Notes: a model not told the origin generated them from the sequence alone. A stretch of DNA of 64,000 nt from Terriglobia bacterium (GCA_963664115.2 CAXWPJ010000012.1:525356-589355); one strand, 5' to 3'. Positions 21,004 through 60,573 are shown, numbered from the stretch's first letter. A program made the numbers and translations.

Positions 21004-21282
21004 CAGGCCCTGACGATCAGGAAGCGTACCCAAGATGAATTTGCCTAAAATCGAAGGCGATAGAAGCGGTTTCCGCAATTCCTGTAGCGAAAGGGGAGTA
21101 CGAAGAACAGGAGAAGCCGTTCGAGCCAGCGCCGACGAGACCGGTGAATCTCTTTCGAGCTGCATCGGGGGCATTGCTCTCAATTTCCGACAAGATGATT
21201 TCTCAGGACTTGACCGCGAAAAATTACGGCGTCGGCACCCGATGCTTCAGTTCTAAAATCAGTTCAGGCCGATGTTGATTTA

Positions 21283-21382
21283 GCTCGACGCACGACCGAT
21301 GACTTAGGACTGGAGTGATATAACTAAAAAACCGTCTCTTAGAAATACGGTCCTTTTGTCCAAATTATTCTGACGACGTACA
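21283..21382 (+). mobile_element. Solo right end of the IS3-like element
   Basis: Diverged match to the IS 3' end, ending CTGACGACGTACA. Confidence 0.8.
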
Positions 21383-21397
21383 GTGAAGGAGGCTTTT

Positions 21398-21703
21398 ATG
21401 CTCGTGGTTGCAGGAACACTTCCTATCAAGGCGGAGCGTTGGGCAGACGCGCAAGCCATGTCGAAAAACATGGTGGCGGCCACGCTCAAGGAGTCGGGCT
21501 GTATTAGTTATCAGTTCCACACGGCAACCGGCGCGGACAATACCTTTTTCCTGTTCGAGGAATGGGAATCCGAACAAGCGCTGGCCGCCCACTTCCAGAC
21601 GGAACACCTACAGGCCTTCCTCAAAGAGGCGCCGAACCTGTTGGCCGGGCCACTCAATGTGAAGAAGTACACGGTCGAAAAAGTCGAGCCCCTGAACCCG
21701 TAG
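21398..21703 (+). CDS. Antibiotic-biosynthesis (ABM)/quinol monooxygenase family
   Basis: ESGCISYQF..FFLFEEWESEQALAAHFQTEH motif and AAGGAGG RBS. Confidence 0.9.
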   Translation: MLVVAGTLPIKAERWADAQAMSKNMVAATLKESGCISYQFHTATGADNTFFLFEEWESEQALAAHFQTEHLQAFLKEAPNLLAGPLNVKKYTVEKVEPLNP

Positions 21704-21811
21704 CAGGAGAGCCGAGAATCCGCTGTTCGCCCTTTCGATTTGAAGTCGTTCTCAGCGCGGTAGAAACACGGCAGAAAACAGAAATTACAGTCCTCAACGT
21801 CCGAGAAGATG

Positions 21812-23063
21812 ATTCAGATCAACCGGTCGATGCAACACCTGCGTTTAATGTCTCTGCCGGATTAGCGAAGTCCAGCGTCTCACGAGGTCGCCCGTTGAGC
21901 TTCCTTGCGATCATATCCAAATGCTCCTGTGAGTGAACCGACAAGTCCGTACCTTTAGGGAAATACTGTCGGAGCAAACCGTTCGTGTTTTCGTTCGAAC
22001 CCCGTTGCCAGGGACTCCTCGGATCGCAAAAGTAAACGGCAATGTCGGTGGCCAGAGTGAACCGTTTGTGATTGGCCATTTCCAATCCGCGATCCCAGGT
22101 CAGTGTTTTATAGAGTTCGGTCGGGAGTTTGTCTGCGTGTTCGATCAGCGCGTTGATGACGGTTTCGGTTTCCTTATTCGGAACCTTCACCCGCATCACG
22201 TACCGGGAGAAACGTTCGACCAATGTCGCAATGTAGGTGTTGTTCGAACCCGCTATGAGATCCCCTTCCCAGTGTCCGGGGACCGCGCGATCTTCAACCG
22301 AAGCCGGGCGCTCACGGATCGATATCAGATCCGGGATCTGCCCGCCACCCCGGCCTTTGCGACTGGCATGCTGGGACCGGCGAATCGTGCGTTTGGTCCG
22401 TAGATGCTGTGTCAGTTCTTTCTTCAGAGCCCCGCGGGCCTGGATGAAAAGGCTGCGATAGATCGTTTCGTGTGACACGTAAAGTGACTCGTCGTCTGGA
22501 TATTCGCGTTTCAGCCAACCCGCAATCTGTCGCGGTGCCCAATCCTCCCGGAGCTTCTCTTCGACGATCCCGCGTAAGCTGGGATAGCGGATCAGTCGAC
22601 ATCTCTTCGGGCGGTGAGCCCGTTCCCATGCGCGTTCATCCGCCTCCAACGCTCGATAGTTATCATAGCCCCCATTGCGACCGATCTCCCGACTGACTGT
22701 GGAGGGTGTACGCGACAGCGACTCGGCAATTGAACGGATCGATCCCTTGGCGGCAATGCCTCGGGAAATCTCTTCACGCTCGGCGAGGGTCAGCGCCCGC
22801 TTAGAGCGGCATCGTGTCCTGGGACAGATTCCACCATACGGTGCGATCTGACCATAAACCGAAGAGCCCTCCTTTCCGAACACACGTCCGATCGCTTTCA
22901 GACTCTCTCCCCGCTGCCAGCGAATCCACACCTCGTCTATATCGGCGAGTGTGTAGCCTCGCCGCACCCGGTCTTTACTCTGTTTCTTCCGTCGTTTCTT
23001 ACGCATACACTCCACCTCCTCCTTTTAGGTACAGTGTTGCATCGATCTGTTGAGACCACCTCG
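21812..23063 (-). mobile_element. IS30-family element (transposase 21819-23015) inserted in the centre of a 40-bp repeat
   Basis: GHWEGDL, TWDRGLE and PWQRGSNENTNGLLRQY motifs. Inverted repeats TCAACnGnTCGATGCAACAC. The flanks rebuild the repeat. Confidence 0.92.
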
Positions 23064-23155
23064 TTTCTCAGGACTTGACCTCGCTTTTCGTTCCAGGTTC
23101 GGTGACCTAATGGATGGTGGCTCACTTGCGGTGGGCACTCATTCAGAAACAGCGG

Positions 23156-23317: not shown

Positions 23318-23614
23318 CTCGACCTCCTGAGGGGGGCCACTTAACCCCCTGGTGGATTTCTCAAGGTCCGAGAAGATGATTTCTCAGGACTTGAGAATCA
23401 TTTTCACGGTTGAAGGCTCAGAGCCCTTTTGTCATTCGATAGCTTCATTCTCTCCCACTCTGAAATCTCTTCCCTCCCCGCACGGTCCGTTGCAATAATT
23501 ACGTCCTGTTGAACTGAAAGGTTGAATGGACTGAAGCGAGGAAGCATCTCAAGATCCTGAAGGATGATGTTGGGCTGACAATAACCATAGTAAGCTCAAC
23601 GATGAGAGGAGGAC

Positions 23615-24754
23615 ATGGTGGCCGCGTTCTGGAAATGGTTCCAATTGTTCTGGTGTTCCTTGATCAACACCCTCCGACTCTTTCTCGGTAGGCCCCCCTC
23701 GATGTCGTGTTGGTTGAAAAGCCATCCGAAGGTCGCAAACAGCATCAAATGGCAGTTCATGTTTCAAGGCTCGGCCTATGACATTCCTGAAACAGCCAAG
23801 CGGGCATGGCCGAACTGGTCTTCTCAAGAAAAGTCTCGGCTGATTACTGCCTTCAATGAGATGTGGCAGTGGATGAAGGCTCAGTCCGGAACTTTCTCGG
23901 CCGGCGGAGAAGGCATGGTTTACCCGCCTATCAACGTCAGGGATACTACGAACGATAACGGTTCTCCGTGGACCGGAGTCAGCCAGGATTACGCCTGGGA
24001 CCTGTTTGTTCGATGGATTGCACTTGAACTTGTCGTAGAAATCAGCAGCTACGTTTCCTGGTCGGTTACGGCCTATGACGAGGAGCAACTTCAAGTGCTG
24101 TTCGACAGCGTTGCGATCATGTCGCGGTTGTCAGATAACAGCTTCACGCTTGCTACCGGGAGTCCAGGGCACTCTAACTATGTCAAGCGCAAGGACAATC
24201 TCGGCACATCCCTAATCGCGCCGCCGCAGTATACTTACGCTTTTCTCGTCAATAGAAATATCGTCGGTGCTTCCCGGATAGAAACTATCGGGAATCTTCT
24301 GCAATGGGTCTCCGACAGTCTGGCCCACTATTACGGGGCCTTCGTGTACCAGGAGACCGAAAACCACTGGCAGTATCGGGGCATCCCTCCGATTACCCGT
24401 ATCATAGAGGGAACAACTAATCCTACTGTCGGTTCGGGCGGACAATTCGATCATTGGACCGCGGGTTGCCACGGCACGACCGGACTCATCCGCAACGTAT
24501 TGAGAGCGCTAAATATTCCGGTACACATCTCGACTGTGTGCGGTCACTCGCAGGCGTTCTTCATCACCGAAGGCCTTTACCTCGACCATGGTGATAACCC
24601 CTACAACATCACCTTCAAGAACACCGGCCAGCCGGCATCCGCTCTACTAATCGATCGCGGCACCTATGTCTCATGGTTTGGAACAAGCACCGACAATCGT
24701 AGCAATGGATGCGACAAGATCGGACATCAAGTAGACGTGCTGGCTGGAAATTGA
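23615..24754 (+). CDS. Hypothetical protein, possible transglutaminase-like Cys-His-Asp domain
   Basis: 379-aa ORF with RBS and the motif AGCHGTT..LRALNIP..GHS..LYLDHGD. Confidence 0.55.
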   Translation: MVAAFWKWFQLFWCSLINTLRLFLGRPPSMSCWLKSHPKVANSIKWQFMFQGSAYDIPETAKRAWPNWSSQEKSRLITAFNEMWQWMKAQSGTFSAGGEGMVYPPINVRDTTNDNGSPWTGVSQDYAWDLFVRWIALELVVEISSYVSWSVTAYDEEQLQVLFDSVAIMSRLSDNSFTLATGSPGHSNYVKRKDNLGTSLIAPPQYTYAFLVNRNIVGASRIETIGNLLQWVSDSLAHYYGAFVYQETENHWQYRGIPPITRIIEGTTNPTVGSGGQFDHWTAGCHGTTGLIRNVLRALNIPVHISTVCGHSQAFFITEGLYLDHGDNPYNITFKNTGQPASALLIDRGTYVSWFGTSTDNRSNGCDKIGHQVDVLAGN

Positions 24755-24986
24755 GGTCCTCAGACTCGTGGTCCGATTGTCGTTAAATCAAGTTTCTTCG
24801 CGCAAAGTGTCTGAGTCATCCGGAGTCTCTATTCCGTTGAACAACTAACCCGCGAAATCTCTTCCCTCGCCGCACGGTCCGTTGCAATAATTACGTCTTG
24901 TTGAAGGGAGGGAGAATATGGTCGAGGAAGAGTCTTCGGTCCCACAAGGTGGTGGGAGCATCAGGTGGACATAAAGAGAGCAGAGC

Positions 24987-25400
24987 GTGAATCTATTTCT
25001 AGCTTCTCCAAGTGCGATAGTAAGTCAGAGGTACGATCGTCTCACCATCGTCTGCTTTGGGATTGTTTGGGCAGTCTACGCTTACCTGCCGCACGTTGCG
25101 ACGCGCTTCCTACGTCCCGAGGAACAACCACCGCCCGGCGATATTAGGTGGTTATGGGCTCCCGCCTGTGCCGTTACTCTTATCTATATCTGTTTCCCTA
25201 TCATTCTCCGACTAGACAAACTTTGGAAGATATTCACTTTCATTTCAGTGGGCTTGGCAATGTATCTGGCCCACGTCGGCGTTGCAGGTTTCGGCATAAT
25301 CGATTTGTCATGGTTCGGGTTCTATTACGGCAGTCTCGGCATGATTCTGCTTCTTTGGAATTCCCCCGATAAACCAGACGATTCAGTTAGATTTGTTTAG
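24987..25400 (+). CDS. Small 4-TM membrane protein
   Basis: Four hydrophobic segments. Start codon uncertain. Confidence 0.5.
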   Translation: MNLFLASPSAIVSQRYDRLTIVCFGIVWAVYAYLPHVATRFLRPEEQPPPGDIRWLWAPACAVTLIYICFPIILRLDKLWKIFTFISVGLAMYLAHVGVAGFGIIDLSWFGFYYGSLGMILLLWNSPDKPDDSVRFV

Positions 25401-25748
25401 TTTGCAGGGCTGACAGCAACCAGCCGCAAATTCCGTCGCCCCCCTCAATTTTTGAGTCAGAAATTTTTTGAGTCCCGTACTTCGATAACTACTTTATGGA
25501 GGCTCAATCGTTTGGTTCCATCCGACACCCTTGTCGATTTTCCCGTCAGGTTTTTTTCCTACGGTTTTTTGCTTGGGTTTTTTTTGATTGAAACTACATA
25601 CACGTCGACGCTATCGAGGTGCTGTCATCAAGGGTTGATTCTCGCTTTTTGGTCGTCCCGACGGCTGAGTCTTGTGGTTGGATTCTGTCGTTGATCGAGA
25701 GAACGGAAATGTTTTGCATGAAAACGCATAGCATAAGCGTATGTAGAT

Positions 25749-26279
25749 ATGAAGTCGATGACGCGAACCGAATTTGAATCGATTGTGAGTGAACACCAGG
25801 CCATGGTCTACAGCATCGCTTACAATTTTTCCGGTGATGCCTCTGCGGCCGAGGAAATTGCACAAGAGGTGTTTCTACAATTGTTCAAAGTCAGCGACCA
25901 ACTCGGGACACTGGCACACGTGAAACACTGGCTTCGCCGTACTACGACCCACCGGTCGATTGACCAACTTCGGCGGAAGGGCCGTCGTGGCGAGGTGCCG
26001 ATGGACGCCCTTCCCGAAATATCGGTGCCCAACCGCGAACGCGACCCCCTGATCACCCAAAGGCTCCAGCGATTGGTTCGTGCGTTGCCCGAGAAGCCGC
26101 GGGCCGTCGTTCTTCTTCGTTACGGCGAAGATATGGATGTGGAAGAGATCGGAGAGATTCTGGAGATGCCTGTAGCGACAGTATGGAGCCATCTCAAGCG
26201 CAGCATTGCGATGCTGCGAGACAAATTCAGCCTCGACACGGAGGAGAAACATGAACGAGTTCGAACGGAATCTTCGTGA
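25749..26279 (+). CDS. ECF RNA polymerase sigma-70 factor
   Basis: AEEIAQEVFL region 2, and LPEKPRAVVLLRY..EEIGEILEMPVATV region 4. Confidence 0.9.
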   Translation: MKSMTRTEFESIVSEHQAMVYSIAYNFSGDASAAEEIAQEVFLQLFKVSDQLGTLAHVKHWLRRTTTHRSIDQLRRKGRRGEVPMDALPEISVPNRERDPLITQRLQRLVRALPEKPRAVVLLRYGEDMDVEEIGEILEMPVATVWSHLKRSIAMLRDKFSLDTEEKHERVRTESS

Positions 26280-26580
26280 CGCACTGGCGCGACGTTCCCC
26301 GAGGGAAGGTTTCACCGACAGGGTTCTGGACCAGGCCAAGCATTCCCGTTTGCAGCACAGTTCCCGTCGATGGGTCCGTTGGGCGGTCGCCGCTGCGGCG
26401 ATTCTGGTTCTGACCGCGGCTCTGTTGATCCGTTCTGATCGGATCGAACGTGCCCGTGGCCAGCAGGCTAAGGAAGAGGTGCTGCTGGCGCTGAGAGTGG
26501 TAGGTCGAACGCTGAACCAGGTAGAGGAACGCGTCCGGCAGGCCCAGCCCTTACGCGTCGGGCAACCGGACAACAACTAA
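26251..26580 (+). CDS. Single-TM anti-sigma factor
   Basis: Overlaps the sigma 3' end and shows P.GFTDRV followed by WAVAAAAILV TM segment. Confidence 0.75.
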   Translation: MNEFERNLRDALARRSPREGFTDRVLDQAKHSRLQHSSRRWVRWAVAAAAILVLTAALLIRSDRIERARGQQAKEEVLLALRVVGRTLNQVEERVRQAQPLRVGQPDNN

Positions 26581-26595
26581 AGTTGAGGAGGTTTC

Positions 26596-27192
26596 ATGCA
26601 CCCATTAATTCTGACTTGCATGCTTATCTTTGGTGTACCGCTTGGGGCACAGACGATCGACCTTTCGTCTCTGGAGGGCCTGAGGGAAAATGCGGATAAC
26701 GTCGTTTCGGTGAGTATCGGTCCGGAACTATTGGCGTTCGCAAACGCCTTCTTGTCCGATGAAGACGAGGAAGAGGCCGCGGCACTCCAAGTCACCGAGC
26801 GCCTTAAAGCCATCGGGGTTCGCGTTTTCGAGTTCAACGAGCCGGGGCAATACGACACTGAAGATCTCGACGCCGTCTGGAAACAGTTGGACGCTGACGG
26901 CTGGAATCGAATCGTTGAAATCGACCAAGAAGACTCCCAAACTGGTGTTTGGATGTACATGGAACCGGAAGTGGCAAGGGCCTCAGAAACGGTAGGTGGT
27001 ATGGCTGTATTGGTCGAGGAAGACGATAAAATCGTTCTAGTCAATATCGTTGGGTCCATCAGTCCCGCGGATCTCGCCGCTCTGGGTGCACAATTCGACT
27101 TGAACGACTTAGCTGATCTCGCTGATCTTGGGAACGACGATGAGGAAAATGATGAAGACGACGATGCTGATGGTGACAATGAGAATGATTGA
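26596..27192 (+). CDS. DUF4252-like periplasmic protein
   Basis: Signal peptide, IVLVNIVGSISP.DL..LG motif, and the usual position after a sigma/anti-sigma pair. Confidence 0.75.
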   Translation: MHPLILTCMLIFGVPLGAQTIDLSSLEGLRENADNVVSVSIGPELLAFANAFLSDEDEEEAAALQVTERLKAIGVRVFEFNEPGQYDTEDLDAVWKQLDADGWNRIVEIDQEDSQTGVWMYMEPEVARASETVGGMAVLVEEDDKIVLVNIVGSISPADLAALGAQFDLNDLADLADLGNDDEENDEDDDADGDNEND

Positions 27193-27352
27193 CGATTCTG
27201 TCGTTATATCTGGCAGGCAGGAACGCCGTACAACCTCGACTCTAAGTCGTAGGGTTTAGAGGACCACTCAACGGACTCGATGGTTCCTTCCAGAGAATGT
27301 GAATTCTCAACTTCCGACAAGATTTATCAGGACTTGAGAACTATTTTCACGA

Positions 27353-27646: not shown

Positions 27647-28176
27647 TGTTATCCTCCGTTGCTTGATTAAGCAGTTAGACAGCAGGGGGCAGGATCGGTT
27701 TAATTCTCAACGTCCGAGAAGATGATTTGTCAGGACTTGACCCAGGGGAATTAGGGAACCGGCACACGTTCCTTCAGTTCGGTGGCGCCGGCGATGGCCG
27801 TTTGGCGTGCCCTCATACGAAAACAACAACCATAACGGAGGCTCCGTCCCTTGAGACTCCGGCCACCCTCTATCCGTTCGGCCTCTGAATTTCCTCGTGC
27901 GGAATTCTTTCGAGCAATTTTTTCAACTTCAGTAAAGGGATCATGGCGAAGTTGAAAAGCCTCTACATTCGGTTGATGGCCTGCGAAAGAAAGTGCTTCC
28001 CGACCCGAAAAGACCCCCCCAAAAAAAACTGGACGAATTACAGATATTAGGGATATTGTTTCAATCACAAATAACAGAATCTTTCCAATGTACAAATTTC
28101 TGAACGTATTCCGGCCGGAATTACGTCCTGTTTGGTTCATAGGAGCGTCGACAAACGCGAGTCTAAGGAGGACCCT

Positions 28177-29809
<1,633 letters not shown>

Positions 29810-31299
29810 TGTAGCCCGTCAGAGCATTTCGCACAGAATCCGCTGAAAAACTAAGAGACACTTTTCTAATCAGAACGATCTGAAGGAGGATCGAATGAGT
29901 GAGAAAGTGTCGGCAGAGAATCGGGTACGGGAGATTCGTCGGAAGACGAGGAAGAAGTACTCGTCGGAAGAGAAAGTGCGGATTGTGTTGGAAGGACTGC
30001 GAGGTGAAGAGAGCATCGCAGCGCTGTGCCGACGCGAAGGGATTCCGTCAAATTTGTATTACCGGTGGAGCAAGGACTTCCTGGAGGCGGGGAAGAAACG
30101 GCTGGCTGGGGACACGAAGCGGGAAGCGACATCGAGCGAAGTCACTGAATTACGCCAGGAGAACGAACAGCTGAAGCAGGTGGTAGCTGAAATACTGCTA
30201 AAGAATCGTTTTCTGAAAAAAACGTTGAACGTAACGGACTCCGAGAGCATCGATATATGAGGCAATCGGGATCTGAGAAGCTGGAGACGATCCGAGTGGT
30301 GGAAGACTCGGAGTTGTCGGTGACAGCGACCCTCCGGGAGCTGGGCGTCCCCCGCAGCACGTTCTACGGTTGGTATCGACGATACAAAGAGCGTGGCGCA
30401 GCCGGCTTGTTAGATCGGCATTCCGGCCCCGGCTTCTGCTGGAACCGGATTCCGGGACCGGTGCGGGAACAGGTGGTCGAAACCGCGTTGAACCACCCGG
30501 AAGCCTCACCGCGGGAACTGGCCTGGCAGATCACCGACACCCAGGACTACTTCATCTCCGAATCCAGCGTGTATCGGATTCTGAAGAGATGCGACCTGAT
30601 CACCAGTCCCGCATACATCGTGATGACGGCCAGCGATCACTTCCAGCAGCCAACCCGGCGTGTGAACGAACTCTGGCAAACTGATTTCACTTACTTCAGG
30701 GTCGTCGGTTGGGGTTGGTACTACCTGTCGACCGTGCTGGACGATTACTCTCGCTACATCATCGCCTGGAAGCTCTTTCAAACCATGGCCGCATCTGACG
30801 TTCAGGACACGCTGGACGTTGCACTACAGGCGACAGATGTCGGACAAGTACAAGTCCGGCACCGACCGCGATTGTTGAGCGACAACGGCCCCTGCTACGT
30901 ATCGCACGAACTCAAAGACTATTTACAACGTCGTGGTATGGAACACACCCGGGGTGCGCCCTATCACCCGATGACACAGGGCAAGATCGAACGCTATCAC
31001 CGTTCGATGAAGAACGTGGTCAAGTTGGAACACTACTATTATCCGTGGGAACTTGAGCAGGCGATCGCGCAATGGGTCGAACACTACAACCACCATCGGT
31101 ATCACGAATCTCTGAACAACGTGACACCGGCTGACGTGTTCTTCGGGAGGGATCAGCAGATCCTTGCACGTCGTGACCAGATCAAAAGAAAAACGCTGGC
31201 TCGACGCAAAATCGAGAACCTTAGGATTGGAGTGGTATAACTTCAAAACCGTCTCTTAGCTAAATGGTCTTTTTGTCCGAATTATTCTGACGACGTACA
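29810..31299 (+). mobile_element. IS3-like element, full copy with variant orfA allele
   Basis: 1490 bp with the same ends as the other copies. Confidence 0.95.
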
Positions 31300-48835: not shown

Positions 48836-48859
48836 TACTCAACTAATTCTGATCGAAGA

Positions 48860-48888: not shown

Positions 48889-48949
48889 TGTGTCTCCTGG
48901 CCCCTAAAGACCGCAACTCGACTCGTCCACCATCACCAACCACGAAAAA

Positions 48950-48985: not shown

Positions 48986-49196
48986 GTTTAAAGTGTGACG
49001 CTAAGTGGAACAGCGAAATTCTGGTAAGTCTATCTACATGGGAGGGATATTGGCAAGGAAAGGGTCAACTCCCGAAACTTGGCAAATTCTCAACGTCCGG
49101 GAAGATGATTTCTCAGGACTTGAGAATCATTTTCATGGTCATTTAGGGCACCGGCACAACACAAGTTTTCTCTCAGGCGCGCAATTGTACGTGGAC

Positions 49197-49532
49197 TCAC
49201 GAGACAATCGGTCGGGGATCGAAGAATGCCCTAACTTCGACGATGCTACCATTCGAGACCCGAAAGTAGTCACACACCTCGATCACTTCGCCGGCGGCAA
49301 CAAACTGGAAGAGGACGCACGCGTGCTCCCCCTGCACAATCTGTTGCTTGACTCGAATGTCGGTCATTTGATGGGCTACCTGAGTAAGAGTTTCGACCAC
49401 AACTGCTCTCCCTACCAACTGCTCTAACACCGGTCCGTCGAACGGGATGCGTGAAGTTGTTGGTACATGCGTGAAGTTGTTGGCCTGAAGACCCTCAATA
49501 TATCGAACGGCGCATTCTGCTGTGTTTGACAC
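49197..49532 (-). CDS. SnoaL/NTF2-like protein
   Basis: VCDYFRVSNGSIVEVRAFFDPRP C-terminus. Single-gene unit between repeats 49087 and 49590. Confidence 0.75.
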   Translation of the reverse strand: MSNTAECAVRYIEGLQANNFTHVPTTSRIPFDGPVLEQLVGRAVVVETLTQVAHQMTDIRVKQQIVQGEHACVLFQFVAAGEVIEVCDYFRVSNGSIVEVRAFFDPRPIVS

Positions 49533-49736
49533 TCGGTGGCATCCTCCGAAGTAAAAGCGTCAAGAGCTTGGTACAACCCAACCGTGCAATTCTCAACGTC
49601 CGGGAAGATGATTTGTCAGGACTTGAGAATGGATTGCAGCGGTAGACAGAGACGGACGGCCCACTTTACGGTGCTTCTTCAAGTTCCTACATCCGTTTCT
49701 GGCAATAGATGTTGGCGTCGCGTCCGGACGCGGGGT

Positions 49737-50576
49737 TCAGGACCGCTTCGTCCGAACCAATGCTGGCGCACGCTCGGCGACGGCAGAAATAAGGGAACCC
49801 ATCTTCGGATGATCTGGCTCGAGGTCGACCTGAAGGCCGTGTCGTTTAATGGCAATGCTACAGATCGGGCCGATCGACGCGACCAGGACGTCTTGAAAGG
49901 CCAATCTCAGGGAGTCGGCCACTTCTGGTCCGGCAACCTGGAAGAGGTGATCCACCTGAATCGCGCTCATGAACAGCGCGATGTCGATCTTGCCCTCGAG
50001 AATCTGCTGGATCGCCTCGTGCAGAGGCCTCAGATTCTCGGGAAGAGCCCAGCGGTAAACCGGTACGGTCAACACTTCTGCGCCGCGCTCTCGCAGGCCC
50101 GCTAGCAGCTCCGGATTCCGTTGGCCATATTCCTGCACTGCGACTCGCTTGCTGGGCAGCTCAACCCGTTCGTCCAAAGTCGCCAGCAGTTCCCGCCAAG
50201 TGTTCGGCTCAGGAACAGATATCGTGGGTTTCAAGCCGAGCTCGCGGAGCGCGGCCACTGGCTTCGGTCCTCGTGTCACGGTAGTTGCAGAGGCAAGGGC
50301 AGCAATGAATTCCTCTCGATCCATCTGCTCGAAAACCGCTTGCGCGAGAAATCGGGTCCCGACTCCTGTCAGAAGAACCACTATATCGATCTCGCCGCGA
50401 CACAACGCGCGCGCAAACTCGACCGCCGGCTCGTTTTTAGATAGTGGCACTTCCTGTAGAGCGGGCGCGCTCATCGGCTCTCCTCCCTGTCGGCGTATCA
50501 GCTCCGAGACCTCATTCGCGCGCCGACTTTCGAACGTGACTAGACACAGCCCGCTCAGTCTTCCAGAATCGCTCAT
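49737..50576 (-). CDS. hemD: Uroporphyrinogen-III synthase
   Basis: ESRRA.E, LTGVG, RGPKP, VYRWALP and ASIGP motifs. Single-gene unit. Confidence 0.85.
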   Translation of the reverse strand: MSDSGRLSGLCLVTFESRRANEVSELIRRQGGEPMSAPALQEVPLSKNEPAVEFARALCRGEIDIVVLLTGVGTRFLAQAVFEQMDREEFIAALASATTVTRGPKPVAALRELGLKPTISVPEPNTWRELLATLDERVELPSKRVAVQEYGQRNPELLAGLRERGAEVLTVPVYRWALPENLRPLHEAIQQILEGKIDIALFMSAIQVDHLFQVAGPEVADSLRLAFQDVLVASIGPICSIAIKRHGLQVDLEPDHPKMGSLISAVAERAPALVRTKRS

Positions 50577-50911
50577 CGTGAAAACGTCCTACAGCAGACA
50601 GGTCCGGACAGAGTGTCAAGTACTTCAGCACTGTCTGCCAGAATGAGTCCGAATCGCTTTTTATCTCCCAGCCATTGAACCTTTTAACCAGCGAAGACTC
50701 CTTCCAACTACAGTAAATCAGAAGGCCATGGCAGTCCACTTGGACGTATATTTGGCTTATCGGAAAGTGGTGGGTTCAATTCTCAATGTCCGCGAAGATG
50801 ATTTATCAGGACTTGAACTCAGAAATCAGGGCACGGGCACCCGCTCCTTCAGTTCTTCAAACCAGTTGAAGTGTATAACGGCTCGCTCTTCCCGTCTTAG
50901 CTTCACGTATC

Positions 50912-52417: not shown

Positions 52418-52675
52418 GGCAAACCTCCAGATTCATCATTCAGCACTGAAGTGTACACACCTTTAACTATGGCAAAGAATTATGACGTGCTTGCTCGTGT
52501 GACTTCAACTCAACTTCATCATATGGGCAGGCGATTGGATCTGGGTAGTTCCGGGATGTCGGTCAGCTCTTCGCCCTGGCTCGTCGGAACTTGAGAATTG
52601 ATTGGCAGGCTGGTTCCGCCAGAGAAGCCGCTTTACTACGGCACCGGCACCCGTTCCTTCAGTTCTTCAAACCAG

Positions 52676-52797
52676 ACGTCCATGAGTGGGCGCTCACGCA
52701 AACAATGAAAAACCGGCATTTTCGTGGTCCCGATACTACGGAAGAAGGCCCGAACTGCCTGGACTGATTCTAAGGGACTTACGCTAAGTTTTCGTAA
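52676..52797. mobile_element. Short non-coding insert, copy 2 (diverged)
   Basis: Same ends and same CAG site in a kinase tail as 37047-37162. Confidence 0.6.
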
Positions 52798-52856
52798 CAG
52801 TTGAGGACCAAGATGACGTCGAGACTAGATCACTCATACCGTCTCGAGGCCGCTTT

Positions 52857-54548
52857 TTAATCGTTACGATAAACGACGCGGCCGCCGACTACAGTCATCA
52901 CCACATCGATGTCTTTGATCCGGTTCTCCGGGACTGTCAGGATATCCTCGGACAGGACTACGAAATCGGCCAGTTTGCCCGCCTCAAGCGAACCCTTGAT
53001 GTCTTCTTCGAAGGTCAATTCGGCGTTCCCGATGGAACTGAGCCGCAGAGCTTCCTCCGGTTGTAGTTTCTGCTCTGGACCCACCACACCCGCGCTGATG
53101 GTATCTCGCGTAATGAAGTGATAGAGCACTGTGATCGGGGAATAAGGGATCACGGGGGCGTCCGTACCCAGCGAGACGGACAAGCCCGCATCTAGATAGG
53201 AGCGGACCGGCGTCAGACTGTCAGCCCGAGTCGCTCCCCAGTATTTTCGAACGCTTGGCGCAGCGACATAGAGGTGGTTTTGCGCGGAAATGTGGAGTCC
53301 TAGTTGCTTCATCCGCGGCAGTTGATCCGGTTGCGGAACGAATCCATGTTCGATAGTCCACCGCTTGCCGGCGAGCGGTGAGTCCGCATCCGCCACTTCA
53401 TAACCCTCCAACACTAGGTCGATCGCCGCGTCGCCCACCGCATGTGTAGCGACACGCCAACCCCGTTGGTTCAGAGCGCGGACCAGCGCGACATAAGACT
53501 CGGTCGGAAACGTCTGAAGGCCTCTGAAATCTCCACCCTGTGCGAACGGCTCGGCGTAGGGTTCTCGCATCCACCCGGCTTCAAAGCCGCCATCGACTCC
53601 CAGCTTGACACCCCCGACACGTACCCATTCATCTCCTTGTTCAGGACCAATACCCCATTCCCGAAGGGTTTGGTCAAGATTGGACAGGTCGGTCGACGGC
53701 CTCAGCCGAAAGAGAACACTCGTCCGGATGTTCAGCAACCCGCGCTCTTTCATGTCGACCAGCACTGAGTAAAGATCTGGGGATGCGCCTCCATAGCGAA
53801 TGCTGGTCAGACCTGCAGCGTTGAGTTTTCGGTGTTCCTCGACCGTTGCCAGGATGCGTGCTTCATAGTCCGGCTGCTGAGGAGCTGTCAGCTGAACCAG
53901 ATCCTTCGCACGGTCGATGAGCTCACCGTTCAGCCGACCATCGGAATACCGTCCGAAGGCTCCGCCTTCGGGCTCAATACTCGCCTGGTCGATCCCCCAT
54001 CGCGCCAGAGCCACGCTATTCAAGACATACTCGTGTCCACCGCGAACGACCACCACGGGGTGATCGCTCACGGCGCGGTCCAGATCGTCGCGATATGGTA
54101 GTCGTTGCTCGGTGAGCTGACCTTCGTGCCAGTCGCTGTTGGTAACGATCACCTCTCCGTCTTCAGTCTGATCCGCTCGCCTGGCGATGGCGTCGAGCAC
54201 CTCCTGAATCGTGCGCGTTTGCGACAGGTCCACGCCAGGCCCGCCGCCCGCGCTGTGGAAGTGGTTGTCAGCCAGCCCTGGGACGGCCGTGCGGCCGGTC
54301 AGATCTATTCGTTCGGTTTGATCGTCGACGAGCGCGAGGATCTCCTCGTTCGTTCCTGTGCTGAGGACCCGGCCTTCACGTACCGCAAAGGCCTCGACGA
54401 CAGACGAGTCGGAATCGAGCGTAACGATGTGCCCGTTGTATACGATGAGGTCAGGGTCTGGCTCAGGTGGTGCAGGAGTGCTACAAGACACCAGAAACGG
54501 AGCGCAGGCCAGAGCGACTCCGGCAATTCGGTTCAGGTGTTTGTTCAC
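52857..54548 (-). CDS. YtcJ-like amidohydrolase, probable lipoprotein
   Basis: PGLADNHFH, HAVGD, IEH, GTDAP and GSLEAGKLAD motifs, plus LVSC lipobox. Confidence 0.9.
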   Translation of the reverse strand: MNKHLNRIAGVALACAPFLVSCSTPAPPEPDPDLIVYNGHIVTLDSDSSVVEAFAVREGRVLSTGTNEEILALVDDQTERIDLTGRTAVPGLADNHFHSAGGGPGVDLSQTRTIQEVLDAIARRADQTEDGEVIVTNSDWHEGQLTEQRLPYRDDLDRAVSDHPVVVVRGGHEYVLNSVALARWGIDQASIEPEGGAFGRYSDGRLNGELIDRAKDLVQLTAPQQPDYEARILATVEEHRKLNAAGLTSIRYGGASPDLYSVLVDMKERGLLNIRTSVLFRLRPSTDLSNLDQTLREWGIGPEQGDEWVRVGGVKLGVDGGFEAGWMREPYAEPFAQGGDFRGLQTFPTESYVALVRALNQRGWRVATHAVGDAAIDLVLEGYEVADADSPLAGKRWTIEHGFVPQPDQLPRMKQLGLHISAQNHLYVAAPSVRKYWGATRADSLTPVRSYLDAGLSVSLGTDAPVIPYSPITVLYHFITRDTISAGVVGPEQKLQPEEALRLSSIGNAELTFEEDIKGSLEAGKLADFVVLSEDILTVPENRIKDIDVVMTVVGGRVVYRND

Positions 54549-54635
54549 GGGGCCACCTCGTTTGCGACTCGATTCCGTAGTCGTTGTTGGATCTCTGCGG
54601 AAAGCTCGCCAAAAGGTACTAAACGACGGCATTAG

Positions 54636-54810
54636 TGTACCCCGTGAGAGTGTTTCGCACAGAATTGCTCGAAAAACTAACGGACACTTTTCGGATCGGA
54701 ACGACCTTGATGAATATCAGTAGACAGAAAAAGTGGCTGGAGTAGTCGAGTAGGGAGAGGTGTCCGTCACGAAGACAGCGCTTCTGTCCGAATTATTCTG
54801 ACGAGGTATA
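54636..54810 (+). mobile_element. 175-bp internally deleted derivative of the IS3-like element
   Basis: TGTACCCCGTGAGAG...TCCGAATTATTCTGACGAGGTATA. Both ends are retained and degenerate. Confidence 0.7.
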
Positions 54811-55191
54811 GATGTCCCCTCCTCTCTTCTCAAGAAGATCTCGGAGAATCGATCGATGACACTGCATTTCGTTTTCGCAATAACATCCGATAGAAAAGTT
54901 GGTCTGATGAGAAAGCGCGGCAAGTATATCCAGATCCCGAGCGGGTCCAGCTTGTTTCATTTCCCCGAGGAAACGTCGCTTGAATGTTTGCCACCGTTTT
55001 TCGTTGCTGATGGGAAAGAATTCCTTTAACAGTGATTCGCTTGGAGAAAGGTTTGGGAACCAAACATCATAGATGTTCTTTGACGCGTATTCTGCCTTGC
55101 GCATGCCCCTGGGTGGTCGTCGCACTGTTCCGATTCGTAGTCCCTCTTCAGTTTCTCGGTCACTACCGAGTCGTTTGATTCTGATGGCCAT
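54793..55191 (-). CDS. DUF488 family protein
   Basis: GLRIGTVRRPPRG, DVWFPNLSPS and CYCENEMQCHRS motifs. Confidence 0.85.
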   Translation of the reverse strand: MAIRIKRLGSDRETEEGLRIGTVRRPPRGMRKAEYASKNIYDVWFPNLSPSESLLKEFFPISNEKRWQTFKRRFLGEMKQAGPARDLDILAALSHQTNFSIGCYCENEMQCHRSILRDLLEKRGGDIYTSSE

Positions 55192-55593
55192 CTCAGGGAA
55201 CTCTCGCGGCTGTGGTGGCTCGTTAGGCGGCCTGGCGTTCAGGACCTAGCGGGTTGCTCAACAGTTTCGCCAATCGCCGCTCTTTGTCAATGCGGTCCTT
55301 AACCCCGACGTCGCCGTATTGAACTACCCCGCAGCACAGCCCATGCCGGTCTTGGCGAGGAGGCTCAGTCTTCGTAGTGGCTAAGTTTGGAACCGGCTGC
55401 ATTGGATGAATGAGACTACAGGTCGGATGTCAGGTCAATGAAACAGTCACATTGACGGTTTGGGGACCATACAGGAGTTAGGAGCAATGGGCCCTCAATT
55501 TCCGAGTGCCGCCAGCGAGGCGCCTCGACGCCCCAGATGTGGAACTTATTTCGGTCAGCATCCTGAAGGTCCCGGTGCGCAGGAAGCCATCGG

Positions 55594-57474
55594 TCAAGGG
55601 ACCGGTGACGTCGTCTGGAGGCGACGCCACACCGGAATCAGCGCCACGCCGACCACGATCCAGCCGGCTCGCCACACGCCCGCAGGCAGGCCGAAGGGCG
55701 TGGGGCTGCCGACGAGCCAGGAGCCGAGGCCCACGATGAGCGCAAAGACGCTGCCGGCGGCCACGAAGGTCGCCGCCAGACCCACCCAGAAGAGGCGGGC
55801 GGGGGTTGCGGGCGCCTCATCACAGCGGGTAGCGATAGCGGACCAGGCACCCGGCGGTCGAATGCGCCGGTAGAAGTCGTCGAGGTGCTGCGCATCGACC
55901 GCCGGCGTGAGCAGCGAGGCGGCGACCGAGGCCAGTGTCGCGATGAGCGTCATCGCCACCATTCGCACCGCTTCATCGCCCGGCGCGGGGAGCGCGTAGA
56001 GCAGCACCGGCGCGGCGACCAGGGAGATCGCGATCGGGGCCAGCTCACCCCAGGCGTTCTGCCGATGCCAGAACCACCGCAGGAGCAGGGGGATCCCCAT
56101 CCCGGCGCCGAAGAGCAGGCTCGTGGTCCACGCCTCCTGGATCGAGCCGAGCCGCGACATGATGGCGAGGGCGATCACGAGGATCACGATGTTGGAGAGG
56201 CGGGCGATCCACACGAGGCGGCGGGGGTCTGCCTTGTGGCCACGAATCCGCTGGCAGTAGAGGCGGTCGTAGAGATCGTTAGTCCAGTAGCCGGCGCCCC
56301 AGTTGAGGTGGGTGTCGATGGTGGACGCGAGCGCGGCGAGCATCCCGACCAGCATCAAGCCGAGCGCGCCGGGGGGGAGGTGGTCGCGGATTCCGAGCAC
56401 GAAGGTCGCCTCGCGCTCCGCCACCGCCGCGCCGGTGATCTCACCGGTCGCCGGGTAGAGCACCATCAAGCCGACGACGATCGGCAGCCAGAGCAGGGTG
56501 CGCAGCAGGCTCTGGGTGTACGTGAACACAACCGCCGCGCGTTGGGCATCCTGGTCGCTTCGGCAGGCCATCGAACGCTGGGCGAGATAGCCGGTGCCGT
56601 CGCTGTTGGCTTGCGCGATCCATTGCAGTCCGAGAATGGCGAGCACCGAGAGAGCGCCTGCGGCGCCCTCGGTGGGGCTGAAGCTCAGCATCTCGGCGGC
56701 GCGCTCGGTGCCGTAAAGGGATTCGAGTCTGCTTCCGATCGCCCCGAGCCCCCCGATCTCGTCGGTCACCACCCACGCATACGCGAAGGTCGCGAGCAAG
56801 GCGATGAAGAGCTGCACCACGTCGGTGTTGATGACGCTGCGCAGGCCCCCGGTCGCCGAATAGAGGGTCGTGAAGGCGACGATGAGGAAGATCGAGAGGA
56901 GGTTGGAGGCGCTGAGCAGCCACACCTCCGGCGCGCCGACGTTGACCGTGAAAGGCGTGCCCACCCACTGCACCGCCGCGGCCAACGGGGCGAGCATCCC
57001 GTCGGGCAACCAGAGGTGCCAGGTCAGGAAGGGCTCGGTGATCCGGGTGGCCGCGAGCAAGACCATCGCGAGCACCACGCAGTTGATCACGGTGCCGAAG
57101 TAGATCGCCTTCACGTAGCGCAGCAGCTCTGCCGCCCGGCCACTGTAGCGTTGCTCGCACAGCTCGGCGTCGGTCAGGATCGATGCGCGCCTCCACGCAG
57201 GGGCGAGCAGGAAGCCCATGAGCAGAAACGCGAGGGAGTAGACCCAGAAGCGCCACAGCGCGAAGATGCCCGCGGTCGCGATCAGCCCCGTGACCACCAG
57301 CGGGGTGTCGGCCGCGTACTGGGTGGCGGCCATCGAGAGCCCCGCCTTCCAACCCGAGATTCTGCGCCCGGCCAGGAAGTATTCCTCAGGGCCCTGCGAG
57401 GCGTCCTTGCGTGCCGTAAACCCGGACCACAGGGCATACGTGACGAAGGCGAGCACCAGCAGGAGATCGATCAC
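55594..57474 (-). CDS. Sodium:solute symporter family protein (markedly GC-rich)
   Basis: EYFLAGR, SMAATQYAADTP and GGLRSVINTD motifs with many TM helices. Confidence 0.9.
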   Translation of the reverse strand: MIDLLLVLAFVTYALWSGFTARKDASQGPEEYFLAGRRISGWKAGLSMAATQYAADTPLVVTGLIATAGIFALWRFWVYSLAFLLMGFLLAPAWRRASILTDAELCEQRYSGRAAELLRYVKAIYFGTVINCVVLAMVLLAATRITEPFLTWHLWLPDGMLAPLAAAVQWVGTPFTVNVGAPEVWLLSASNLLSIFLIVAFTTLYSATGGLRSVINTDVVQLFIALLATFAYAWVVTDEIGGLGAIGSRLESLYGTERAAEMLSFSPTEGAAGALSVLAILGLQWIAQANSDGTGYLAQRSMACRSDQDAQRAAVVFTYTQSLLRTLLWLPIVVGLMVLYPATGEITGAAVAEREATFVLGIRDHLPPGALGLMLVGMLAALASTIDTHLNWGAGYWTNDLYDRLYCQRIRGHKADPRRLVWIARLSNIVILVIALAIMSRLGSIQEAWTTSLLFGAGMGIPLLLRWFWHRQNAWGELAPIAISLVAAPVLLYALPAPGDEAVRMVAMTLIATLASVAASLLTPAVDAQHLDDFYRRIRPPGAWSAIATRCDEAPATPARLFWVGLAATFVAAGSVFALIVGLGSWLVGSPTPFGLPAGVWRAGWIVVGVALIPVWRRLQTTSPVP

Positions 57475-57598
57475 CTGCGCTTTATATCACAGCCCACCAG
57501 TGCTATTGGGGGCGCGGAGATTTCCACGAGATGACTGCCCCCAACGATCGACCGCGCCGCACCTTCACAATCATCTCGCACCCCGATGCGGGCAAGAC

Positions 57599-57750
57599 GA
57601 TCAGCATCCTTCGCAAACTCTTCGGGCAAAGTCTTAAATAGCGACTTCCCGTCCCAGTTTCATATCCCGCGCACGCCACACCTCACCCATACCGCCCTTG
57701 CCCAGAAGGCTCAGGATCGCGTAGTGACCGAGTTTGGTGCCTGTTTTCAT
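57599..57750 (-). pseudogene. 5' remnant of a Ser/Thr kinase gene
   Basis: [38 protein letters not shown], a frameshift, then KTLPEEFAKDAD. Confidence 0.85.
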
Positions 57751-57953
57751 GTTTAAAGTGTGTCGCTGAAAATACCGTGAAAAACTCGGTAAAAGATACT
57801 AGATGAGGGAGTTAGGCGCTATCAAATTCTCAAGTCCCTGCAAACGACCTTCTCGGACTCTGAGAAAAGGCCCTAAAAACGGGATTCTCAAGGTCCGAGA
57901 AGATGATTTCTCAGGACTTGACCCGGAGAATTAAGGCACAGGCACCCGTTCCT

Positions 57954-58589
57954 TCAGCTCTTCAAACCCGATTTGGACGATTCTGTGTTGAGAGCCTCAG
58001 AGTTCAATCTCCATTCCTGCAACCGTCGGCGACAGGTGCAGTGTTTTCCCAGATGGTACAAACCGACAAGATCGGCAGTAAAGGAGAACGGCTGCACTGG
58101 GATCTCGTTCCGACCGACGCCGAGGGTGACATGGGGGTCATACCTGTCGAAGCTCGCGGCTTCCCGATATTCGGAAACGTATTCGATCTCCCAGCCCTGA
58201 ACGCTCTGTCCTTGTGAGAAGAAGGCACTGCCGTCACCCCGCGACTTGGACAGCCCCGCTAAGGCGTTCACCAGATCGTCGTGAATCTGCCTTAACGCTT
58301 TTGTTTTCGCAATGCGGAGATACGTTGTAGTTCCGGCGAAAGCTGTTTCTAACGCCTGTAGTCGCAACGGGGATCGGCCCTTCAAGACTTTCCCTACTTC
58401 ACTGCATAGCGCGGCTAGGTTCGATTTCAAGACGAACTGCTGAACTAACGTAACGTGAGGAAAGTGAGTTGAGTCAAAAGCAAAACCTGTGGGGCCATCC
58501 TGCACCAGAGCCGTGTTGATTTGTTTGCAGAGTTCGTTTGTTTCCTCTGGTAGCAGCAGAGCAACATCAACGGCGAGCAGTTCTTTCAT
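57954..58589 (-). CDS. 2H phosphoesterase (2'-5' RNA ligase family)
   Basis: Two PHVTL motifs. Confidence 0.85.
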   Translation of the reverse strand: MKELLAVDVALLLPEETNELCKQINTALVQDGPTGFAFDSTHFPHVTLVQQFVLKSNLAALCSEVGKVLKGRSPLRLQALETAFAGTTTYLRIAKTKALRQIHDDLVNALAGLSKSRGDGSAFFSQGQSVQGWEIEYVSEYREAASFDRYDPHVTLGVGRNEIPVQPFSFTADLVGLYHLGKHCTCRRRLQEWRLNSEALNTESSKSGLKS

Positions 58590-58667
58590 TCGGGGGCGGC
58601 AACGCGGCGATCTACGCCATGACGAGCTTGATAACTAGTGACAGTCGATTTCGTTTTCACGGGAGAG

Positions 58668-60055
58668 GAGTTATAACCGAATCTGGTGTTTGAGGGATTG
58701 AATAAGAGCGGCGTATCTGGTTGATTTGTTGTGACAAAACTTCAAAGCAACCATAGGAGATACGCCACTGTGAGCAAGAGTAACGTGAATGGACCGGAAG
58801 GTCGAGAAACGATTGAGGATCCAGTAACAGAACTACTACGAGTTGGGGCACAGCAACTGATCCAACGCGCAGTGGAAGCCGAATTGGCAGAGCTGCTATC
58901 CCAGCACGGTGGCCGGCGAACTGAGACAGGAAACGCCGGGGTGGTACGCAACGGTTATCTGCCGGAACGCGAACTGCAGACGGGATTGGGTCCGGTAACA
59001 GTCCAAATCCCGAAGGTCCTGGGTGCCAAGACGGGCGAAGCTGTGACGTTCCGATCGGCCCTGGTACCACCGTACATTCGGAAGACGAAGTCGCTGGAAG
59101 CAGCGGTGCCGTGGTTGTATTTGAAAGGCGTTTCCAGCGGCGAGATGGGTGAGGCCCTAAAAGTTCTTGTCGGTCCCCAGGCGCAGGGTCTGTCGGCGAG
59201 CACGGTATCGCGGTTGAAACAGGTTTGGGGCGAACAGTACCGCCTCGGATGCGAGGAGCGTTTGGATGCCGATCGCTGGGTCTATGTCTGGGCCGACGGC
59301 ATCTACAGCGGACTTCGGGCGGAACAAAGCAAGTTGTGCGCATTGGTCGTGATCGGCGTGAATGAACGCGGAGAGAAGCGTTTTCTGGCGATCGAGGATG
59401 GTATCCGGGAATCGACACAGAGTTGGCGTGAGGTCTTGTTGAAGCTGAAGTCACGTGGAATGAATATCCCGGAGTTGGCCATCGGTGACGGTGCGATGGG
59501 GTTCTGGGCCGCACTGGAGGAAATCTATCCCGAGACACGTCAACAACGTTGCTGGATGCACAAAGTCATGAACGTCCTCAACTGCCTGCCCAAGTCGGTC
59601 CAGGCGAAGGCGAAACAGGCCCTGCACTCGATCTGGCAGGCCGAGACGAAGGCAGACGCCGAGAAGGCATTCGACTTGTTCATTGAAACCTATGAACCGA
59701 AGTATCCGAAAGCCACACTCTGCCTGCAGAAAGACAGAGAGGAACTGCTGGCCTTTTACGACTTTCCGGCCAAGCACTGGCAGAGCATCAGAACGACGAA
59801 TCCCATTGAGTCGACCTTTGCCACCATTCGACACCGAACGAAGCGATCCAGAGGTTGCCTGACACGGGATGGCATGCTGCACATGATGTTCAAACTGGGC
59901 CAGTGCGCTGAGAACAATTGGCGACGATTACGAGGATTCGATGATCTGAGCAAGGTAATCATCGGAGTGAAATTCAACGATGGTGTCGAAGCGACACAAG
60001 TCGATCAGGCCGCCGCTTGAATCAATCTCCTAAACACCACTTTTGACAATAACTC
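58668..60055 (+). mobile_element. IS256-family element, intact transposase ending at 60020
   Basis: Same ends as 39172-40772. No clean 9-bp TSD. Confidence 0.93.
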
Positions 60056-60116
60056 GAGAGGAGCCGTAAACACTACTAACGGCACCGGCACCCGTTCCTT
60101 CAGTTCTTCAAACAAG

Positions 60117-60229
60117 ACTTCATGAGTGCCGCTCACCCCGAATGATGAAATTTCGTTTTGCGCCTAAACACCCAGAAGGGAGCAAGACGCCCGTACTCAA
60201 ATTAAAGAACTTACGCCATATTTTCGTAA
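60117..60229. mobile_element. Short non-coding insert, copy 3
   Basis: Close homologue of 37047-37162, at the same position in a kinase tail. Confidence 0.65.
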
Positions 60230-60573
60230 CAGTTCAGGACGATGTTGATTTGGGGTCATGCGACCTCGCCGCTATCGGCCTGGTCGGCGGGCCGAAACGG
60301 GTTGAGACTCGACACCGCCTCGGTTCACCGCCTCGAATCTACACTGGGGATGACTCGACGGACTCGGCCTACTTCGCCACAGATCCCAGGAGGGCGACGT
60401 CACGGGGCGCACTCAAGTTAAATGACCCCCGGCAAAGCCGGGGGCTTAATTTTGTTAGCCCCTCAAAAGGGCCGGTCAAGAGCCGCCTGAAGGCGGCGAA
60501 TTCGCCCACGGTATGTTCAACTGCTCCACAATTCTTCGTCCGTCGGTACTTCGGTACGGACACCGCGTGACAC

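Follow-up and report, generated by a model that had tools for sequence, protein, structure and literature searches.

A probable gene-cassette system founded on a membrane kinase gene in a Terriglobia genome

Why should the two ends of one kinase gene lie again and again beside the same short repeat, with unrelated genes between them? The question is raised by a 64,000-nucleotide stretch from a Terriglobia bacterium (the window), which corresponds to C12:525356-589355 in a 4.9 Mb genome of 12 contigs (G000; C1-C12). An array of 40-bp repeats fills the window from about 17.5 kb onwards, its copies separated by accessory genes and many insertion sequence (IS) elements. A first-pass annotation, made from the window alone, had proposed that an amplified Ser/Thr kinase cassette is the template from which new cassettes arise by internal replacement. 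We followed the repeat, hereafter the site, and the kinase through G000 and its Terriglobia relatives (G001 and so on), which are uncultured Acidobacteria, using a comparison set of 61 genomes, 11 of them site-bearing and 50 others; the compared loci in G000 and relatives are labelled L001-L174. The array is probably a chromosomal site-specific cassette system whose founder was a kinase/PD40 gene and whose cargo cassettes came from sloppy joining inside that gene; it resembles dif modules, and would be neither a dif system nor an integron. In the published literature searched, with subscription papers and supplements outside the search, we found nothing on this site or system.

Sites and the kinase gene that they flank

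A profile of the site recovered 178 copies in G000, distributed over 9 of its 12 contigs, and none in a shuffled contig. The layout is 17-6-17, with a left arm (TTCTCAAnGTCCGAGAA), a 6-bp spacer and a right arm (TTCTCAGGACTTGAGAA), and the 40-bp consensus has the ends TTCTCAA...TTGAGAA. The spacer defines two classes, class A with GATGAT (131/178 sites) and class B with TGTCGT or GGTCGT (21/178). It is conserved more than arm positions 8, 14, 15 and 26, and its 3' half (GAT or CGT) is the steadier half in G000 and relatives alike. A recurrent variant carries the spacer GAT instead of GATGAT (window 27304-27340; C2:255636, C2:757907, C9:1129190; L084).

The two classes mark opposite ends of the kinase gene. 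At A sites the right arm is followed by the kinase tail in 74 of 144 cases and by the kinase head in none, and at B sites by the head in 24 of 28 cases and by the tail in none. The same polarity was found in the relatives, where 57 of 112 A sites have a tail and 17 of 23 B sites a head. A further 32 A sites carry the leader of the head on their left arm, and the downstream flank of 98 of the 147 A sites is one of four kinase-type 12-mers (chance 0.13%). Class B precedes the kinase promoter, lying 1-2 bp upstream of a sigma-70-like -35 box, and class A is placed inverted, 6 bp behind the kinase stop codon.

The gene to which head and tail belong could be identified. Both occur in the same open reading frames (ORFs), which match PF00069 (Pkinase, 165 bits) and PF07676 (PD40, 83 bits) above the Pfam cut-offs, as the first-pass annotation had proposed for the tail. 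G000 has five full-length copies, four intact and one with a single internal stop, each with Pkinase, a membrane segment and PD40. The kinase at C10:248476 sits between two A sites, that at C5:155791 between B and A, and that at C12:20624 between an IS30-split B and A; of the remaining two, one has a whole head site and a damaged tail site, and the other a tail half site only. G001 and G003, too, have kinase genes set cleanly between a B and an A site. Because intact kinases are flanked by sites and the tail is carried by kinase proteins, we retain the proposal that the remnants derive from a repeat-flanked kinase. Runs of intact kinase genes in an operon-like tandem order, in which the stop codon of one gene overlaps the start codon of the next or a palindromic repeat separates the two, were observed without sites at L149 and L151 (G029, G026) and at L148 and L152 (G021, G013).

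The first-pass annotation had suggested testing whether substitutions in the tail are mostly synonymous, and they are: across 136 G000 tails compared with their consensus we counted 242 synonymous, 118 replacement and 8 stop changes, against a ratio of 24:66 among the possible single changes. The tails therefore derive from a range of selected paralogs, with no single master copy behind them.

A second family of sites, here called C-type, has a 15-6-15 layout and the spacers GGCGAC/GGGGAC and GGCGGT/GGGGGT. It shows the two-class layout around kinases, as in the 40-bp family, in G001, G004, G007 and others, and one C-type site is present in the window at 55445. One or both families occur in 11 of the 61 genomes, from three genera of one family (a count that excludes one 3-mismatch match in G019), and G003 alone carries 62 sites. 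Searches for the site gave no match in viral contigs, none among 72,556 plasmid records and one short match in metagenome contigs.

Folding was predicted for the A site (z -4.6), weakly for B and not for C. Compensatory hairpin pairing was absent (60/147 paired vs 60.2 in shuffles), and hairpin covariation of the site was therefore rejected, as pairing did not exceed the shuffled level. Duplication of the site upon insertion was rejected as well, because adjacent sites resemble each other like random pairs (2.38 vs 2.49 mismatches). Some sites form inverted pairs 18-20 bp apart.

Mobile units and hollowed units

The units of the array span 0.4 to 9 kb, and in G000 79 of them lie between direct A sites and 19 between inverted A and B sites. 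Judged by sequence comparison, units recur between sites with swapped neighbours, within and between species. The 4.0-kb cassette at 23358-27340 (plus strand) has an A site at one end and, at the other, an A site whose spacer is 3 bp shorter; at C10:212430-217816 it recurs between other neighbours, left and right (99.7% and 97%). Likewise, the unit C2:264298-265587 recurs on C6 (99.6%) and the unit C6:39774-40163 on C10, each with different neighbours. In 30 pairs of sites, at least 150 bp of flank is common at 93% identity or more on one side only, with identity stopping at the site, and 14 of these pairs involve a relative's locus. B sites also exchange flanks, and when the symporter unit of the window is aligned with its G002 copy, identity begins at the C-site spacer. 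Within the site, bases 1-7 track the upstream flank and bases from about 28 onward track the downstream flank.

The same sites frame what is left of the kinase. About 12 minus-strand kinase tails had been reported in the window. Ten of them match the last 30 nt of an intact kinase with at most 7 mismatches (0 in 200 window shuffles), whereas those at 40779 and 49143 keep only the last 3-5 codons (PVP*) and are credible solely by their adjacency to a site. The spacing of 6-16 bp between tail and repeat holds for 9 of the 12, if an IS256 copy with its 8-bp duplication is discounted at 40779; the tails at 37007 and 60076 have no site, and near 52636 there is a decayed arm about 37 bp off. The three heads with a common leader, at 42307, 48985 and 57750, were recovered with profile scores of 114, 84 and 112, and two weak heads that had been missed lie at about 55340-55400 and at 18861-18919. 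The window has no intact kinase, since the catalytic-loop, DFG and APE-region motifs are absent from all six frames.

Three units had been described as keeping head and tail around unrelated genes. One of them, 39137-42390, is indeed a simple hollowed unit, but the other two are composites. In 44938-49087 an IS3 without target duplication joins two unrelated halves, and the metallo-beta-lactamase (MBL) gene cut there is still fused, at C2:766452 and in G002, to an in-frame kinase head of its own. The third, 52580-57866, consists of two units divided by the C-type site at 55445 and a fourth head. Contigs from 4/4 public sequencing runs (4 studies; one possibly of the source sample) span both the C-type site at 55445 and the junction of head and cargo at 57601; one public-run contig spans 40746-42420 with zero differences. 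These junctions are therefore not assembly artefacts.

The 91 heads compared in G000 and relatives break off at scattered points between about 33 and 450 nt, each giving way to different DNA, and two heads are joined directly to a tail, one of them via GGTTTGAA. The microhomology or IS scars that breakpoint mapping had been suggested to reveal were found in part: three junctions have 8-10 bp of microhomology and some adjoin multi-copy elements, but others have no microhomology. Comparison with uninterrupted donor-like copies showed the head at 57601 joined to a prfC fragment over about 10 bp of microhomology, and 9-10 bp of microhomology at C12:430942. Multi-copy elements border 9 of 46 junctions at heads and 1 of 60 at tails. 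Of 98 units, both ends are retained in 20, the tail alone in 29, the head alone in 11 and neither end in 38; 11 of the 19 inverted A-B units retain both. Overall, the association of head with tail is weak (p=0.08 in G000, p=0.65 in relatives). With diverged paralog tails, both ends in 20 of 98 units, weak head-tail association and scattered breakpoints, a single template and a single replacement step are unsupported; what stands of the original proposal is a flanked kinase unit with its remnants around cargo.

Cassettes contain several genes, in both directions, with 117 cargo genes co-oriented with the kinase and 68 opposite (p 0.0004; home-made gene caller). Chromosomal homologues of the cargo are only about 63-90% identical to it, which marks the cargo as foreign. 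Cargo at C5:289721-290529, C2:330491-332179 and C2:256969-258402, which presumably encodes IscA/IscU, a sigma-70 factor and ribosomal protein S1, shows 70-87% identity to the resident copies that could be found. RNA-mediated capture was rejected because the orientation bias is too weak for it. Non-homologous end joining and competence are without support as a hollowing route, since neither Ku (present in 2/5 genomes) nor ComEC (4/5) was found in G000. The simplest account of these data would be independent illegitimate joins inside a mobile kinase unit, followed by erosion and IS-driven reshuffling; the route of cassette birth appears visible but untidy. At C2:764776-766452 (L056), a kinase head of 20 residues runs in frame into an MBL-fold gene (558 aa), and G002 has the fusion as well.

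Recombinases and competing explanations

Mobile elements have repeatedly used the sites as targets. IS30 ends, two IS110-type ends, the end of one further element (8 matches) and an ORF-less group II intron lie at fixed positions inside sites, in many copies. The IS110 left end stands directly behind the site spacer in 7 of its 8 genome matches. The intron has three near-identical copies in G000 (window 38460-39136; C12:16363-17036; C12:19486-20173) at the same A-site position, and a relative of it occupies a B site in G002 (L054 among the listed loci).

A further element, at 42391-44898 (minus strand), lies in the spacer of a B site, which it splits, with CGTTT at both ends. It pairs a tyrosine recombinase (43907-44791) with a Y2/IS91-type transposase (42729-43910) and is matched by NF033538 and PF00589; its relatives in G002 are placed likewise. 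All 8 full copies of such recombinase/Y2 elements in G000 lie at the spacer 3' half of A, B or C-like sites (6 judged by eye), as do 10 of 11 copies of a G026/G029 family. Known elements of a similar kind are the IS91-family elements with a tyrosine recombinase that are catalogued in ISfinder. The two are alike in the recombinase and Y2 transposase pair, but here the element sits in a site spacer, has a 5-bp core at both ends and is not followed by a GAAC/CAAG target, which gives these 'IS91-like' elements the look of recombinase-type integration into site spacers. This suggests that tyrosine-recombinase-bearing elements of this kind integrate via that enzyme; the literature searched yielded no paper describing such integration. 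The recombinase/Y2 families (L041, L045, L067, L098, L156-L174) each keep to one site class. In the window copy, the 5' end is repeated in inverted orientation about 90 nt in from the 3' end. A fold of the element's end junction was tried and dropped, as hairpins were obtained but the predicted end-to-end pairing was not.

The IntI-related recombinase of these resident elements, acting in trans, is our leading though tentative candidate for the enzyme that would act on the 40-bp sites. It is found in 10 of the 11 site-bearing genomes and in 6 of the 50 others, scores 192 bits against the integron-integrase model (cut-off 265) and groups loosely with IntI (84/91 support). Serine recombinases are also present, and an enzyme other than those named here is conceivable but doubtful. 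Host XerCD is an unlikely agent. Decidedly unlikely is a 316-aa tyrosine recombinase (L001:16190-17140, on C5 of G000). It is bracketed by two B sites that point outward, with a kinase start behind each of them, and it faces kinase starts in G000, G007 and G040 (three genera; L014, L013). We demoted it to a minor candidate because 4 of the 11 carriers have it, as do 7 of the 50 other genomes, and because no kinase lies near 8 further homologues.

The observed site architecture, fixed polarity, flanked intact genes, units in new neighbourhoods, scattered junctions and elements inside sites lead us to regard a real, lineage-restricted cassette system built on the kinase gene as likely. Linkage between site polymorphisms, weak within the left arm (p 0.002-0.008) and absent across the spacer (p 0.3), also counts in its favour. 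The founding cassette would have been a membrane kinase/PD40 gene between two inverted 40-bp sites. A tyrosine recombinase would exchange strands between sites that share a spacer class, A with A, B with B and likewise for C-type sites, and B-gene-A units could swap in the manner of dif modules. Loss of a B site would turn a unit with its short linker into a direct A-to-A unit, able to excise and re-insert in one step and so to build long arrays. Foreign DNA would have been joined inside the kinase gene by sloppy, often microhomology-assisted recombination that left the ends and the sites; each kinase/cargo junction would have arisen separately, by capture or deletion and in some cases at the end of an IS, and the kinase promoter may give an advantage to cargo in its own direction.

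Several observations weigh against this reading. Strict spacer exchange does not predict that positions 8-27 of the site track neither flank, as they do (mismatch at position 15 is 0.47 in both sets of pairs, against a background of 0.47). This pattern and the linkage data would fit spacer exchange blurred by branch migration, conversion or repeated events, and would fit ordinary homologous exchange too. An excised circle or an empty site was not demonstrated, and the joints seen in public contigs are explained by other genomic copies. Besides XerC and XerD, no recombinase is common to all the site-rich genomes examined; in G003, a 30-contig assembly with 62 sites, neither the recombinase/Y2 recombinase nor the 316-aa recombinase was found. 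The co-occurrence of recombinase and sites is among kin and is confounded by assembly quality. All 8 examined copies of a G001/G017 family of recombinase/Y2 elements lie at no recognisable site, so these elements may be mere parasites. Two junctions with a donor-like copy show zero microhomology, and the 38 of 98 units with neither head nor tail add to these points.

The best-surviving rival, which we nevertheless consider unlikely, takes the palindrome as an operator or other regulatory element that spread with the kinase expansion. Shuffling would then come from homologous recombination or gene conversion among the 34-40-bp repeats and kinase ends, and the remnants would be decay in an IS-rich island. 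It accommodates core polymorphisms that look as if crossovers fell anywhere in positions 8-27, the lack of a dedicated recombinase common to all carriers and the B site just ahead of the -35 box, and hairpin-forming repeats would draw IS110, IS30 and introns regardless of recombination. However, it does not explain the inverted copy 6 bp behind the stop codon, nor two spacer classes tied to gene ends in two site families, nor cassettes whose common stretch is bounded by a site at each end; moreover, the kinase family is present in 50 of the 61 genomes and the sites in just 11.

A true dif-module system, in which host XerC/XerD act on diverged chromosomal dif-like sites, strikes us as improbable. 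The 6-bp spacer lies between AA and TT, the left arm matches the XerC arm of host dif at 8/11 positions, inverted sites with spacer classes are arranged as in Acinetobacter, and XerC and XerD are the only recombinases common to G000-G004. Yet the right arm matches the XerD arm at 5-6/11 only, the host has its canonical dif at another place, the GC-skew switch of C2 (C2:108113-108141), and two families with different arms (14 and 15 bp cores) share one genome. Furthermore, the sites are mostly direct repeats where dif modules alternate, and no plasmid matched. Single copies in G007 and G029 had prompted the idea that the site is the chromosomal dif itself; it was rejected because dif is elsewhere and most family members lack the repeat. 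A second dif-like site, oriented like dif itself, was noted 3.4 kb from it at about C2:111510-111537; the two may mark an element that integrated there.

A dedicated reaction that replaces the kinase interior in one step, for instance template-switching reverse transcription or a programmed double cut, is very improbable: both ends are kept in 11/19 A-B units, cargo is biased to the kinase direction with one gene in frame with the head, and group II intron reverse transcriptases are present along with an intron that targets the site, but 37% of cargo genes are opposite, breakpoints are scattered, head and tail are near-independent, and IS-made composites mimic the anatomy.

Known systems and the window from left to right

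Among known systems, the cassette system that we favour would by analogy work most like dif modules. For Acinetobacter, PMC13141974 describes inverted pdif sites that are matched by their spacers, fused modules, and C modules alternating with D modules, and PMC10132070 describes IS elements hunting pdif sites. As far as these accounts go, both systems have asymmetric two-arm sites with a 6-bp spacer and identity classes that define partners, genes between inverted sites, fused modules between direct sites, and site-hunting IS elements. They differ in that the 40-bp sites here are not host dif, whereas the sites there are of 28 bp and closely match it; that 178 chromosomal copies are mostly direct here (79 A-A vs 19 A-B) and alternate in inverted order there; and that those modules are carried on Rep_3 plasmids, with no match to our site among the 72,556 plasmid records. 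Modules here, unlike dif modules, carry remnants of one founder gene.

The attC sites of integrons have RYYYAAC...GTTRRRY ends and are 57 bp or longer, and they are invaded by IS110-family elements. With integrons and clusters of attC sites lacking an integrase (CALINs) the array shares long direct-repeat palindromic arrays, varied accessory cargo and a candidate recombinase, that of the recombinase/Y2 elements, that groups loosely with IntI. In contrast, the 40-bp site is shorter than attC, is without RYYYAAC/GTTRRRY ends and shows no pairing covariation, and cassettes are multi-gene and run in both directions. An integron integrase IntI (TIGR02249, 440 bits) is encoded at C9:714608-715549, 196 kb from the nearest site; IntI is present in 2/5 genomes and was not found in 3/5. 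Its distance and the missing ends led us to reject the array as an integron. Invasion of sites by group II introns is another shared trait, described for attC in PMC8876359.

Repetitive extragenic palindromes (REP), REPIN doublets with their RAYT transposases and miniature inverted-repeat transposable elements (MITEs) are likewise short high-copy palindromes, some in inverted pairs 18-20 bp apart. They do not have strict polarity to one gene, spacer classes or kilobase units moving between sites. Moreover, the site here is not inserted as a unit: its flanks are kinase-derived and neighbours are no more alike than random. The available part of PMC11322121 contains nothing on a recombinase. In Solibacter, the consulted part of PMC3174227 reports kinases in multiple copies that are under purifying selection and lie near short repeats and many integrase genes. 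Expanded Ser/Thr kinases, integrase paralogs and short repeats nearby are thus common to both, but that part describes no flanking site, cassette behaviour or hollowed units.

On these comparisons we would tentatively propose a third natural gene-cassette system besides integrons and dif modules, with its own site families, a recombinase lent by recombinase/Y2 elements and a hollowed kinase whose promoter, ends and sites frame captured genes. To our knowledge, cassette genesis is poorly documented for both integrons and dif modules; the first-pass annotation called it unexplained for integrons, although we found no published passage stating so. A proposal on cassette formation was reportedly made by Leon and Roy in 2009. 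Here intact, half-eroded and cargo-filled cassettes stand side by side in several genomes, which would make a route of cassette birth traceable and testable. The system may also offer a reason for the expansion of the kinase family in Acidobacteria, and its sites, a new set with incompatible spacer classes, could be usable for cassette-exchange tools.

Immediately left of the array, at 9707-15943, sugar-nucleotide, glycosyltransferase, methyltransferase and ABC-transporter genes are disrupted by IS3 copies. The left edge of the array is the right half of an A site (17571-17590, plus strand, like the sites that follow unless stated) behind an IS30-type end near 17550. The next A site (18821-18860; spacer GATGAT) has the kinase-start fragment 18861-18919 (minus) abutting its right arm, and that at 21177-21216 has a tail at 21224-21282 (minus). 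A site at 21791-23081 is split in its spacer by IS30 (21814-23061), leaving the left arm with GATGAT at 21791 and CGT with the right arm at 23062. After the 4.0-kb cassette described above come an A site with a short tail (27704-27780; tail 27751-27780, minus), a collagen-repeat cargo gene of 560 aa whose 3' end is cut by IS3 (28132-29814), and an IS110 element (31296-32683, plus) with its end abutting a remnant of an A-site right arm.

The A site at 33680-33719 has 977 bp upstream in common with C6/C11 copies (99.6%) and a differing downstream flank; conversely, 661 bp downstream of the A site at 35091-35130 are common to G001, where the upstream flank is different. Between them lies an A site with a tail (34343-34448; tail 34389-34448, minus), and beyond them a decayed A site with a tail (35944-36031; tail 35990-36031, minus) and a tail without a site (37007-37187, minus). 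The ORF-less intron (38460-39136, minus) splits the left arm of the A site at 38440-39165. The simple hollowed unit follows (39172-42390, minus), with IS256, the PVP* tail at 40779, an orphan cargo gene of 279 aa (40920-41759), the head 42240-42307 with its leader, and a remnant of a B-site right arm. Its IS256 copy (40236-40772) contains an internal 216-bp tandem duplication.

Beyond the recombinase/Y2 element, the left half of the split B site (minus), a 19-bp linker, an A site (44938-44977) and a tail (44984-45045) occupy 44896-45045 (plus). The composite unit 45126-49087 (minus) holds the MBL-fold gene cut by IS3 (46252-47745), an NHL gene (plus) and the head 48926-48985 with its leader. 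A sites at 49087, 49590 and 50780 come next (49087-50870, plus), with one small cargo gene per interval and tails at 49143 (last codons) and 50826. The hollowed unit 52580-55444 (minus) contains a decayed right arm, the tail at 52636 with a 110-bp insert, an amidohydrolase, an IS3 fragment, DUF488 and the degenerate head at about 55340-55400. It is followed by the C-type site (55445-55486, plus; 15-6-15, spacer GGGGAC), at whose spacer identity with the G002 copy of the next unit starts. That unit (55487-57866, minus) carries the sodium:solute symporter cargo, the prfC fragment, the head 57601-57750, a leader with a sigma-70-like promoter (57825-57796) and the B site 57827-57866. An A site lies back to back with this B site, 18 bp away, and has a tail at 57931-57988 (minus), the two spanning 57885-57988 (plus). 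The last tail, at 60076-60253 (minus), adjoins IS256, has no site and contains a 110-bp insert. A repeat of about 110 bp separates INIVLN from WFEE in three of the kinase tails, always at an identical position, at 37047-37156, 52676-52790 and 60117-60223.

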